IMG/VR virus record: IMGVR_UViG_2563366968_000011
From: a virus
Taxonomy: Duplodnaviria > Heunggongvirae > Uroviricota > Caudoviricetes
Strand: one strand, 5' to 3'
DNA length: 5,639 nucleotides
Part shown: positions 4,065-5,639 of the stretch, one piece after another
Position numbering within the stretch: position 1 is the first letter of the stretch
Layout of the letters: every line of letters begins with the position of its first letter
Notes under the pieces: model-generated
Database searches by the model: none
Seen by the model: the letters and a program-made list of their open reading frames with translations, nothing else
What the model was told of the DNA's origin: nothing
Made by a program: the position numbers and the translations under genes

Positions 4065-4319
4065 ATGCAGACAATCATCTATCAGATAACCCCCAGCAAA
4101 TGGTGTACGGAGAGAGTCCTTATTGCATCAACAGGGCTAAAGCCCGTCACCATCGAGCGGGCCAGAAGAAAGTCATGGATGCAGGGAAAAGAATACCGCC
4201 ATTACGCTGTAGAAGGTGATCCTGGGCATTACAGTGAATGCCTGTACAACATCGAAGAAATTATGCGATGGATCGAAAACCAGAAACAACCAGGTGCCAA
4301 AAATGCAAGTTCCGGTTAA
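4065..4319 (+). CDS. xis: excisionase-like protein (putative Xis / recombination directionality factor)
   Basis: An 84-aa protein encoded immediately upstream of the integrase (33-nt gap) on the same strand, the canonical lambdoid xis-int arrangement. It is Trp-containing and basic (…TPSKWCTERVL…PVTIERARRKSW…IMRWIENQ…). GAGG at 4057..4060 precedes the ATG. The call rests on position and composition, not detected homology. Confidence 0.55.
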   Translation: MQTIIYQITPSKWCTERVLIASTGLKPVTIERARRKSWMQGKEYRHYAVEGDPGHYSECLYNIEEIMRWIENQKQPGAKNASSG

Positions 4320-4352
4320 CCTGTTAATGCTCCTGGACGTCTGGGAGGTTTA

Positions 4353-5639
4353 ATGAGTAACGTATCATACCCGACAGGCGTTGAAAACCATGGAGGATCA
4401 CTCCGTATATGGTTTCACTATAATGGCAAACGTGTCAGAGAAAACCTCGGTGTTCCTGACACCGCCAAAAACCGGAAGATCGCAGGTGAACTTCGCACTT
4501 CCGTTTGTTTTGCAATCAGAATGGGGTGTTTCGACTACGCCACACAGTTCCCTAATTCCCCTAACCTGAAACACTTTGGTCTGGGAAAAAGAGAGATAAC
4601 CGTTAAGGCACTTTCGGAAAAATGGTTGGACCTTAAGAAAATTGAGATTTGTGCGAATGCACTTAATCGTTACCAGTCAGTAATTAAAAACATGTTGCCT
4701 ATGTTGGGTGAGAAAAAACTGGTTTCATCCATAACAAAAGAGGATTTACTTTTCGCAAGGAGAGATTTGTTGACCGGTTACCAAAAGCTTTCTAATGGAA
4801 AGATTTCTTCCATAAAAGGGCGCTCAGTGGTCACAGTAAACTACTATATGACAACCATAGCTGGAATGTTTCAATTTGCAACAGATAATGGTTATACCTC
4901 AGGAAACCCATTTAACGGTCTGGCACCCTTAAAAAAGTCCAAGGTAAAACCAGATCCTCTCACCCGTGACGAATTTATTCGTTTTATTGAGGCTTGCCGT
5001 CATCAACAAACAAAAAACCTGTGGATTCTCGCTGTATACACGGGTATTCGTCACGGGGAGCTGGTATCGCTGGCATGGGAAGATATAGATCTTAAAGCAA
5101 GGACTATAACCATCCGTAGGAATTATACAAAACTTGGCGAATTCACTCCACCAAAAACCGATGCTGGCACCGGAAGGACAATTCATCTGGTTCAACCAGC
5201 TATTGATGCTCTTAAAAGTCAGGCGGAAATGACCATGCTTGGAAAGCAACATTCTGTAGAGGTAAAGCAGAGGGAATATGGGAGAAGTACTGTGCATAAA
5301 TGCACTTTTGTTTTTAGTCCTCAGGTAATAAAACAGCGGCAGTTTTCCGGACCGCACTATAAGGTTGACTCCATCAGGGAGTCATGGACAAGTATCTTAA
5401 AACGCGCAGGTCTGAGACACAGAAAATCGTACCAATCCAGGCATACTTATGCATGCTGGTCACTTGCCGCTGGAGCTAATCCTAGTTTTATCGCAAGCCA
5501 GATGGGCCACACAAACGCACAAATGGTATTCAATGTTTACGGAGCATGGATGAAAGACAACAATCACGAACAGATAGAACTCCTTAACAAAAGACTATCT
5601 GAAAGTGTCCCATGTATGCCCCATAAGAAAGTGGGGTAA
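4353..5639 (+). CDS. int: phage tyrosine integrase (lambdoid, Rac/e14-like N-terminus)
   Basis: GGGAGG at 4343..4348 precedes the ATG at 4353. The N-terminus (SYPTGVENHGGSLRIWFHYNGKRVRENLG…FDYATQFPNSPNL) resembles the arm-binding domain of lambdoid integrases as I recall them. The C-terminal catalytic region has …YTGIRHGELVSLAWEDIDL… (Arg), …SRHTYACWSLAAG… and …GHTNAQMVFNVYGAWM… (His and the Tyr nucleophile). The TAA stop at 5637..5639 is the last codon of the window. Confidence 0.9.
   Translation: MSNVSYPTGVENHGGSLRIWFHYNGKRVRENLGVPDTAKNRKIAGELRTSVCFAIRMGCFDYATQFPNSPNLKHFGLGKREITVKALSEKWLDLKKIEICANALNRYQSVIKNMLPMLGEKKLVSSITKEDLLFARRDLLTGYQKLSNGKISSIKGRSVVTVNYYMTTIAGMFQFATDNGYTSGNPFNGLAPLKKSKVKPDPLTRDEFIRFIEACRHQQTKNLWILAVYTGIRHGELVSLAWEDIDLKARTITIRRNYTKLGEFTPPKTDAGTGRTIHLVQPAIDALKSQAEMTMLGKQHSVEVKQREYGRSTVHKCTFVFSPQVIKQRQFSGPHYKVDSIRESWTSILKRAGLRHRKSYQSRHTYACWSLAAGANPSFIASQMGHTNAQMVFNVYGAWMKDNNHEQIELLNKRLSESVPCMPHKKVG

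Follow-up and report, generated by a model that had tools for sequence, protein, structure and literature searches.

An excisionase gene and an integrase gene that run up to the very edge of a viral DNA fragment raise the question of where the phage ends and the host chromosome begins, which sequences the integrase would recognize at this border, and whether the copy at hand may still be able to leave its host. The window analysed here, a stretch of 5,639 nucleotides, closes with xis (positions 4065-4319, plus strand; 84 amino acids, ATG start) and int (4353-5639, plus strand; 428 amino acids, ATG start), whose TAA stop codon at 5637-5639 forms the final bases of the window. These open reading frames are exactly the intact, co-oriented pair described in the original prediction. 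They are separated by 33 nt without overlap, and Shine-Dalgarno sequences can be read ahead of both, GAGG for xis and GGGAGG at 4343-4348 for int; a promoter scan returned no plus-strand pI-like candidate in or near xis. We are highly confident that these sequences form the int-xis module, together with the attachment-site portion next to int, of a lambda-like Escherichia coli prophage residing in the biofilm-regulator gene mlrA (yehV).

The products of both genes are readily assigned. Xis is an excisionase, or recombination directionality factor, of the DUF1233/XisR type, with matches to the Pfam family PF06806, "putative excisionase DUF1233" (E = 8.7e-29), to PHROG 539, "excisionase" (E = 1.4e-36), and, in a phmmer search, to the structure of a "putative excisionase", PDB 2KVV (5.9e-5). 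At the protein level it is 99% identical to Xis of VT1-Sakai and 27% identical (E = 3e-7) to XisR of the Rac prophage, an experimentally proven excisionase (PMC4632033). The AF2 model of Xis (pLDDT 67) comprises a helix-turn-helix (HTH) followed by strands, and a Foldseek search with this model yielded weak matches, none at E 0.001 or better, of which 2KVV was the best (probability 0.85) and TorI ranked 13th. Xis has the make-up of a small winged-helix/HTH DNA-binding protein encoded beside int. NCBIfam holds no specific model for either Xis or Int and returned only sub-threshold Xer-type matches.

Int combines an arm-type DNA-binding domain (codons 7-70, positions 4371-4562, plus strand; PF12167, Arm-DNA-bind_2, E = 7.1e-24), conserved with Rac IntR (PTGVE..RIWF..GKR.RE.L), with a catalytic domain (codons 203-396, positions 4959-5540, plus strand; PF00589, Phage_integrase, E = 5.4e-18), and also matches PHROG 1, "integrase" (1e-82). 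Alignment to the Tn1549 Int structures, together with motif positions, places the catalytic residues at R233, K268, Y360 (the His-I position), R363, H386 and Y396, the last being the probable nucleophile, whose register is deduced from the Tyr-to-Phe mutant residue of PDB 6EMY, which aligns one residue before Y396. The integrase had been predicted to be full length with its catalytic residues present; its length is indeed that of all close relatives and the R/K/R/H/Y set is in place, except that the first histidine of the HxxR box is a tyrosine. The same tyrosine is found in Rac IntR and in the Sp15 integrase and therefore represents a family trait and no lesion. The exact 428-amino acid sequence occurs on 180 contigs, and Int is 97% (protein) and 97.9% (DNA) identical to the VT1-Sakai/Sp15 type and 43% identical to Rac IntR at the protein level. 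With this set of catalytic residues and a separate N-terminal arm-binding domain, Int belongs to the heterobivalent (lambda-type) tyrosine integrases, and it is specific for the mlrA/yehV site.

The border itself lies beyond the last base of the window. Since the window matches the E. coli scaffold KB732384.1 (GCA_000350885.1; source contig L011) over all of its 5,639 nucleotides, the true downstream sequence can be read: the int stop codon is followed by 37 nt (AATAAAAACTTGTAAAATCAGTTAGTTTACCCTTAAT), by the repeat CCCTGTCACGTTACGCGCGTG, which starts at nucleotide 38, and then by GCAGAGG of the 3' part of mlrA/yehV. The junction accordingly lies 38-58 bp past the int stop, closer than the 100 to 300 bp that had been expected, and the source contig excludes a continuation of phage genes lacking an att-like repeat. 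The insertion, at CCTGTCACGTTACGCGCGTG, falls within the 5' part of the mlrA coding sequence, at about codons 17-23, and int adjoins the 3' mlrA fragment in the source contig, in the VT1-Sakai record AP000400 and in 458 genomes. A tRNA or another host gene had been anticipated at this place; in the source contig, an ARAGORN search of the 2.4 kb that follow int detects no tRNA and the flank is mlrA, which rules out a tRNA or tmRNA as attB.

The predicted direct repeat at the other prophage end is present as well. In the complete genome 19AR1724, which differs from the window by 2 SNPs, the same 21-bp sequence recurs 47,410 bp away, beside btsS, and the genes between the two repeats make up a complete lambdoid prophage. 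The empty site of K-12 mlrA retains 20 of the 21 bp of the repeat, and the same 20 bp are annotated as the attachment site in AP000400. Among 5,426 complete E. coli genomes, 458 carry the junction between the int 3' end and mlrA, and int itself is present at an identity of at least 95% in about 456 genomes. The same junction (attR) is seen in all 27 informative IMG/VR loci; the 80 viral-contig relatives, all at least 97% identical, offer no independent test of motifs and are useful for the junction only. Taken by itself, the end of int next to mlrA might be the deletion or rearrangement boundary of a decayed remnant that came to abut the host gene by chance, a reading for which the IS element in the region could be cited. 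The recurrence of an identical junction across complete genomes and viral contigs, the matching repeat 47.4 kb away with a full phage gene set in between and the coincidence of the junction with the annotated att site of VT1-Sakai refute it, leaving it a vanishingly small probability. The prediction of a lambdoid integration module at a prophage edge is borne out by the shared repeat and the host gene directly past int. The phage side of attL reads GCGCGTGACGCAACATTTTTAAAAATCG. The source scaffold reaches back about 46.3 kb from the attR core, compared with a reference prophage of 47.4 kb plus IS1, so that attL of the source copy lies off the scaffold; attR is intact in the source contig.

The closest relatives of the module are VT1-Sakai (Sp15) and the lambdoid phages BP-4795, YYZ-2008, JLK-2012, phi330 and PhiR5_1, which insert into yehV/mlrA and show 97-99% DNA identity. 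They share the 20-bp attachment sequence, the position in yehV/mlrA and the gene order of DUF4222 gene, 44-amino acid ORF, xis, int and att, and the window has the insertion site and the int gene, at least 95% identical in nucleotides to the VT1-Sakai type, of a yehV/mlrA-specific module. The differences from this group are that the closest complete genome, 19AR1724, has no annotated stx in the corresponding prophage, that the copy in the window carries a Gly28Val substitution in Xis and an IS1 in the gene yfdR, and that the early-left genes ahead of xis form a mosaic, at least 80% of the window being matched by only 3 genomes. The module, its mlrA/yehV target, the 20-bp attachment sequence and the effect of mlrA disruption on biofilms are all previously known, having entered the literature and GenBank annotation from about 2000 to 2016.

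The sequence around the junction suggests how the site is built. The attP core, GTCACG-TTACGCG-CGTGAC, consists of two 6-bp half-sites in perfect dyad symmetry around a 7-bp spacer, and attB of K-12 matches it throughout the left half-site and the spacer and in CGTG of the right half-site. This arrangement has the appearance of inverted core-type sites around an overlap of 6-8 bp that is identical in attP and attB. In the related Stx1_14040, which has another target, GTCAC/GTGAC are kept and the centre is TTAACTG, the difference being concentrated in these 7 bp.

Distinct from the core-type sites, probable arm-type repeats are found in both arms of attP. The first int-proximal unit, GTGTCCCAT (5605-5613, plus strand), lies within int codons and is part of a 23-nt direct repeat that is common to the int-proximal and far arms with 91% identity; the second, ATGCCCCAT (5616-5624, plus strand), follows 11 bp later, the two-unit sequence being GTGTCCCATGTATGCCCCATA. 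The far arm contains three units, again phased at 11 bp. In attP coordinates the units lie at -72 and -61 (short arm) and at +134, +145 and +156 (long arm), with the consensus RTGYCCCAT. As judged from these motifs, the int-proximal attP arm would overlap the last 12 int codons and attP would lie partly inside the window, at 5605-5624. The attachment site and junction had been placed just outside the window, which is correct for the core and junction and not for this arm; the search for arm-type repeats proposed at the same time does return probable units in both arms. The C-terminal tail encoded by these 12 codons (ESVPCMPHKKVG; 5601-5636, plus strand), apparently a translation of arm-site DNA, extends beyond the homology with Rac IntR, the alignment stopping at residue 416, where IntR ends, and in Stx1_14040 it has diverged outside the codons that cover the arm motif. 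No report on arm-type sites for this integrase family was found in the literature searched.

The int-proximal motif lies in coding sequence, and coding constraint could explain part of its conservation. Carried further, this leads to the alternative that the GTGTCCCAT/ATGCCCCAT motif is a by-product of constraint on the C-terminus of Int and of a shared mobile "distal arm" cassette, with Int acting on the core alone or on other accessory sites. The proximal copy does fall within int codons (VPCMPH), phages that differ in their cores have a near-identical distal arm, a sign of cassette exchange, and the arm-site function of the motif is a prediction from sequence. Against this stand the distribution and the spacing of the units. 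In Rac, two TTTGCCCC units follow the intR stop, and three more, with a degenerate TTTTGCCAC, lie about 125-170 bp past the core, so the equivalents there are outside intR, in non-coding DNA, and recur at the far arm at similar distances. In Stx1_14040 the motif is kept in both arms and the copy number differs by exactly one 11-bp unit. ATGCCCCAT occurs only three times in 86 kb comprising the whole prophage and its flanks, in the same orientation each time and always within about 165 bp of the core, the 9-mer being absent from the rest, and Int possesses a dedicated arm-binding domain. The by-product explanation is consequently considered improbable, and the units are treated below as probable arm sites.

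Other elements of the predicted attP are less clear. No match to the IHF consensus WATCAANNNNTTR at one mismatch or fewer is present in attP of the window copy. The stretch from the int stop to the core holds a conserved block, ATCAGTTNNTTTA, which has one mismatch to the IHF consensus in allelic spacers, a weak lead towards an IHF site. The long arm contains, at +39 to +116, the densest cluster of TCGAYG in the 86 kb, which is a candidate for Xis binding. Retroregulation of the sib kind, or a terminator confined to the attP form, was also considered and rejected: the int-attP RNA fold is not unusual (z = -0.86), and the core hairpin is present in both the attP and attR forms.

Together, these elements suggest the following recombination pathway. 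The N-terminal domain of Int would bind the RTGYCCCAT arm sites, arranged in 11-bp tandem as two short-arm and three long-arm units (+134 to +164), and its catalytic domain would bind the inverted half-sites GTCACG and CGTGAC. The strands would be exchanged inside TTACGCG, the 7-bp spacer, which lies about 48-54 nt past the end of the window. Integration would split mlrA after codon 22, with loss of the N-terminal helix-turn-helix and a TGA stop contributed by the phage half-site. The probable target of Xis, a directionality factor of the winged-helix type, would be the long-arm TCGAYG cluster, and the reverse reaction driven by Xis and Int would regenerate an intact mlrA. Judging indirectly from the behaviour of relatives, Int may catalyse integration between attP and attB and, dependent on Xis, excision between attL and attR; by analogy with the 27%-identical XisR of Rac, Xis may bind the arm DNA of attP and attR and stimulate excision.

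The organization follows the lambda paradigm, in which a heterobivalent Int is encoded downstream of xis, attP follows int, and short and long arms flank a 7-bp overlap. The window element shares with lambda a heterobivalent Int, with xis upstream of int on the same strand, an attP of about 240 bp (-72 to +164) directly after the 3' end of int, a short arm by int and a long distal arm, probable arm sites in tandem at helical-repeat spacing, and a core dyad around a 7-bp overlap. It differs in several respects: Xis has no detectable sequence similarity to lambda Xis, the arm-binding domain of Int belongs to another Pfam family (PF12167) with the arm consensus RTGYCCCAT, xis and int do not overlap but are 33 nt apart, attB lies inside a gene that is inactivated on integration, and RNA folding detects no sib-like structure at int-attP, where an IHF match with at most one mismatch is also absent from attP. 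Closer in type is the IntR/XisR system of Rac in E. coli K-12, which targets ttcA. The two have in common the integrase family (Arm-DNA-bind_2 plus catalytic domain), the tyrosine at His-I, a homologous Xis, a target within coding sequence and the attP layout, with two TGCCCC-type units by int and three, plus a degenerate one, about 125-170 bp beyond the core. In Rac, however, the core is 26 bp long (AAGAAAGAACAATACAACCTGAACAA) and the target gene is another one, IntR ends before the arm units whereas the int reading frame of the window runs through them, and integration alters ttcA without inactivating it (PMC4632033).

Two features of the window bear on the mobility of this particular copy. 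The first is an IS1 insertion, the last 147 bases of which (1-147, plus strand), ending in the inverted repeat AAGTTGGAGTCATTACC, interrupt the prophage gene yfdR and are followed by the right copy of a 9-bp target-site duplication, GACAAGATA (148-156, plus strand). This 9-mer is also found immediately ahead of the opposite IS1 end, and it occurs once in the uninterrupted reference. In the source contig IS1 spans positions 5163-6083 of L011, with an N-gap, and the window starts right after this gap; the element lies in the same leftward gene string as xis-int, with xis about 3.9 kb further downstream. Among complete E. coli genomes, none joins window bases 1-147 to yfdR, the best matches beginning at base 148, and the IS1/yfdR junction drew 0 matches when the species-representative genome collection was scanned for the exact pattern. 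The second feature is Xis codon 28 (4146-4148, plus strand), a rare allele with GTC (Val) in place of the GGC (Gly) of nearly all relatives. Gly28 is found in 12 of the 13 aligned homologues, and the change to Val is one of only two differences between the window and 19AR1724. The exact Val28 Xis occurs on few contigs (5 in one count, 13 read in another) as against 255 for the cluster representative (P0002). In the AF2 model (pLDDT 67), residue 28 starts helix 2 (27-39) of the helix-turn-helix.

These two features give reasons for doubt, and it is a serious possibility, though short of probable, that the module is genuine but the prophage is locked in, unable to excise or severely hampered in doing so, so that mlrA would be permanently inactivated in the source strain. 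The IS1, with its 9-bp target duplication, separates the repressor region from xis-int, on the same strand, and could keep early leftward transcripts from extending into xis-int, although it is a simple insertion with no deletion. Gly28Val, at what the model suggests is the start of the recognition helix, could weaken DNA binding, although a helix can accommodate valine and several independent contigs carry the Val28 allele. The far attachment site, off the source scaffold, may be damaged, whereas attR is intact and Int is a very common allele (180 contigs). Moreover, Sakai prophages without a functional Xis still circularize via Int alone (PMC2669165).

Excision competence of the window copy is in sum plausible, by analogy with relatives that excise and whose proteins are 97-99% identical. 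Sp15 circularizes, about 40-fold more with mitomycin C (PMC2669165), and excision from mlrA restores native mlrA, albeit in O157 only rare or transient restoration is seen (PMC5931665). The element resembles the active-lysogeny switches (comK-phi10403S, sigK-skin and the mlrA-Stx1 prophage) in that a regulator gene is interrupted and that, as read from attL and attR, precise excision would restore wild-type MlrA. The regeneration of native mlrA upon excision was reportedly described by Uhlich in 2016 (cited in PMC5931665 and PMC7192596). What is seen here is a gene interruption read from sequence, and regulation of excision for the benefit of the host is not implied; mlrA does figure on a list of known cases of regulated gene integrity (PMC7192596).

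Further consequences can be imagined, although they are improbable. Int bound at the arm units in the last int codons could feed back on int mRNA or on read-through into 3' mlrA; the rare Xis Gly28Val and the IS1 could be signs of a lineage with the prophage fixed as a permanent mlrA (curli/biofilm) knock-out; and the arm consensus with the 7-bp overlap rule (TTACGCG versus TTAACTG) could yield a usable site code, the first of its kind, for the IntR/PF12167 family.

As a discovery the module carries little weight, being already well known. Its broader relevance lies in the host, about 8% of complete E. coli genomes carrying a phage at the mlrA site, and in annotation, as the RefSeq label "MlrA" on the truncated 3' fragment hides the mlrA knock-out. 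The IS1 and the Xis Gly28Val change in the source strain bear on any assumption that the prophage is mobile. For the IntR-like (PF12167) integrases, for which no attP map was found in the literature searched, the comparison offers such a map, with predicted arm units, a core dyad and a 7-bp overlap that may act as the determinant of specificity.

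The prophage edge of the window carries two intact, co-oriented genes, as the original prediction described: xis (84 aa; 4065-4319, + strand) and int (428 aa; 4353-5639, + strand), whose TAA stop codon forms the last three window bases. Both ORFs are preceded by a Shine-Dalgarno sequence (for int, GGGAGG at 4343-4348), and a promoter scan gave no + strand candidate for int. The 84-aa product matches the Pfam family DUF1233 "putative excisionase" (8.7e-29) and PHROG 539 "excisionase", and in the int product residues 7-70 form an Arm-DNA-bind_2 domain (7e-24) and residues 203-396 a Phage_integrase catalytic domain (5e-18). 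NCBIfam holds no specific model for Xis or Int, and a fold search with the Xis model returned weak matches only. The anticipated catalytic residues are largely in place (R233, K268, R363, H386 and Y396), except that the usual first His is a Tyr (Y360); since Tyr also occupies this position in the Sp15 integrase and in IntR of the Rac prophage, it is a family trait. A scan of 3500-5639 detected seven terminator-like hairpins with short stems, compared with 1.7 expected from shuffled sequences; one lies inside int on the + strand (5292-5305) and is followed by TTTTGTTTTT.

Segment 4000-5639 is found with at least 95% identity in about 456 complete E. coli genomes and is 97-99% identical to phages JLK-2012, VT1-Sakai, YYZ-2008, BP-4795, phi330 and PhiR5_1. 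In annotated genomes, int is invariably followed by mlrA (yehV), which begins about 36 nt further on. The window is identical across all 5,639 bases to scaffold KB732384.1 (assembly GCA_000350885.1), which continues past the window end as AATAAAAACTTGTAAAATCAGTTAGTTTACCCTTAAT CCCTGTCACGTTACGCGCGTG GCAGAGGCG..., the last part being mlrA. In the 19AR1724 prophage locus, which differs from window positions 148-5639 by two bases, the 21-bp CCCTGTCACGTTACGCGCGTG adjoins int, and the predicted direct repeat at the other prophage end is a second copy 47,410 bp away beside btsS. Between the two copies the lambdoid gene complement is complete, with terminase, portal, capsid, tail, lysis, Q, repressor region and early-left genes. 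The empty mlrA site of K-12 retains 20 of the 21 bases of CCCTGTCACGTTACGCGCGTG, and the VT1-Sakai record annotates those 20 bp as the attachment site. The presence of this repeat next to int, at the far end, in the K-12 empty site and in the VT1-Sakai annotation places the start of the junction 38 nt past the window end. The module thus forms the prophage edge and the junction falls just beyond the window, as proposed, but closer than the 100-300 bp predicted; the target is the host gene mlrA, and a tRNA search downstream of int in the source contig found none. The int-3'/mlrA junction occurs in 458 of 5,426 complete genomes, a number equal to that of genomes with this int type, and in each of the 27 IMG/VR loci that extend far enough downstream; site specificity for mlrA is essentially absolute. 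The 19AR1724 prophage also carries a tRNA Arg-Arg-Ile cluster and a nanS-like esterase (L005 5138-7823), as is typical of Stx phages; with no stx genes annotated between the two, the prophage is Stx-phage-like but stx-less.

All computationally testable defining features of the VT1-Sakai/Sp15-type module were found, and the module is the already known yehV (mlrA) integration module of that type. The Int and Xis proteins of Sp15 are 97% and 99% identical to those of the window, and Sp15 circularises spontaneously, with about 40-fold more circles after mitomycin C (PMC2669165). Int belongs to the IntR-like (PF12167) heterobivalent tyrosine integrases, and the module would work like lambda Int/Xis.

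The attP sequence was rebuilt by joining the phage sides of both junctions; signed positions below are attP coordinates. Its core contains a perfect dyad, GTCACG-TTACGCG-CGTGAC, and attB has in common with it the left half-site, the 7-bp spacer and four right half-site bases. A 7-bp overlap flanked by two core-type sites is the classic layout; strand exchange probably takes place within TTACGCG, and the overlap sequence would set target choice. A 23-nt repeat common to both arms resolves into 11-bp-phased units with the consensus RTGYCCCAT, two in the int-proximal arm (-72 to -64, window 5605-5613; -61 to -53, window 5616-5624) and three in the distal arm (+134 to +164). In the 86 kb examined, the 9-mer ATGCCCCAT appears just three times, always at attP and in one orientation. 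Arm-type sites recognised by the conserved N-terminal domain would be expected to show this pattern, and the units would represent the arm-type repeats that had been predicted. The att core does lie downstream of int, 38 nt past the window end, but attP is not wholly outside the window, overlapping the 3' end of int at 5605-5624. Homology between Int and IntR stops at residue 416, so the final 12 codons of int read through the arm units. In lambda attP, the short arm lies at int and the long arm is distal, and the approximately 240-bp span reconstructed here mirrors this layout. Four TCGAYG hexamers at +39 to +116, as the densest such cluster in the 86 kb, may mark a candidate Xis site. No good match to the IHF consensus was found in attP, and the phage and prophage forms did not differ in any sib-like structure or terminator. 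In the phi330 genome record (PV189401.1), int, core, distal arm and dinI follow one another in this order as well. This "complete genome" holds two perfect tandem copies of the 20-bp att core (L007 4179-4218), and the record looks like sequence taken from a prophage and closed over both its att copies, not like a true attP.

The Stx1_14040 phage (LC567819.1; L009 380-600 and L010 640-960 were compared with the reconstructed attP) has an int that is 84% identical at the DNA level and uses another target with a 21-bp duplication. It keeps the arm motif in both arms; its distal arm is nearly identical to that of the reconstructed attP, lacking exactly one 11-bp unit. The identity begins precisely at the right core half-site CGTGACGCAAC, and the int-proximal spacer has diverged, a mosaic joint at the probable crossover site. 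The Stx1_14040 core reads CCGTCAC(A/T)TTAACTGCGTG; thus, it retains the half-sites but differs in the central 7 bp. The Rac prophage is more distant (IntR 43% identical to Int; XisR, a proven excisionase (PMC4632033), 27% identical to Xis). There, TTTGCCCCCAA-TTTGCCCCATT directly follows the intR stop, and the far end contains three more TTTGCCCC units and a degenerate TTTTGCCAC, about 125-170 bp past the 26-bp core. At both Rac ends in K-12 (L097 1440-1500, - strand; L098, - strand), the TTTGCCCC units are in 10-11 bp tandem, an attP architecture that matches that of the window prophage; the Rac excision paper does not mention these tandem units. A literature search found no earlier attP map for this integrase family, and the putative map for the IntR-like (PF12167) family is an only mildly new output.

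Among the other ORFs, 172-642 encodes an N-terminally truncated YfdR (HD-domain 5'-deoxynucleotidase). ORF 1702-2199, elsewhere annotated as "XF1762 family protein", resembles the Mom (DNA modification) family of Pfam, but below threshold (E 7e-5; 23 bits, cut-off 27). Positions 2631-3599 form a single 322-aa frame with a C-terminal DUF551 domain, for which PGAP gives a 126-nt "incomplete" DUF551 pseudogene and an 810-nt gene in 19AR1724 and AH20K059; the gene model is inconsistent between annotations.

Whether the window copy is excision-competent is roughly evenly balanced. Competence is favoured by an Int that equals a very common allele (180 contigs) and by an intact attR in the source contig. 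Possibly against competence, window positions 1-147 are the end of an IS1 that interrupts the prophage gene yfdR and has produced a 9-bp target duplication, GACAAGATA; this is a simple insertion (window 1-156; L011 5163-6092), upstream of xis-int on the same strand. The window start directly follows a scaffold N-gap (run of N) inside IS1. No complete E. coli genome joins the first 147 bases to yfdR, the best matches beginning at base 148, and searching representative genomes for the exact IS1 junction pattern gave no match. Gly28Val in Xis (GTC, 4146-4148), a rare allele found on few contigs, may also count against competence; Gly is kept in 12 of 13 homologues, and a moderate-confidence model places the residue where the second helix of the helix-turn-helix begins. 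The far end (attL) falls off the source scaffold.

On the side away from int, the split mlrA reads MALYTIGEVALLCDINPVTLRA and then a TGA contributed by the phage half-site, and the junction sequences show that the 3' fragment on the int side lacks the N-terminal helix-turn-helix. RefSeq/PGAP labels this fragment an ordinary 228-aa "HTH-type transcriptional regulator MlrA" with a non-canonical ATC start (L005 25528-26214; L001 7676-8362; L002 7676-8362); as it is not flagged as a pseudogene, the annotation hides the knock-out. The 5' fragment (22 codons and TGA; L006 22331-22396) is listed as an "incomplete hypothetical protein". Recombination inside the overlap would make the MlrA coding sequence whole again. 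Prophage insertion here is documented to abolish or reduce curli and biofilm, and native mlrA is regenerated by spontaneous or induced excision; mlrA is counted among the known cases of "regulated gene integrity" (PMC5931665, PMC3874044, PMC7192596).
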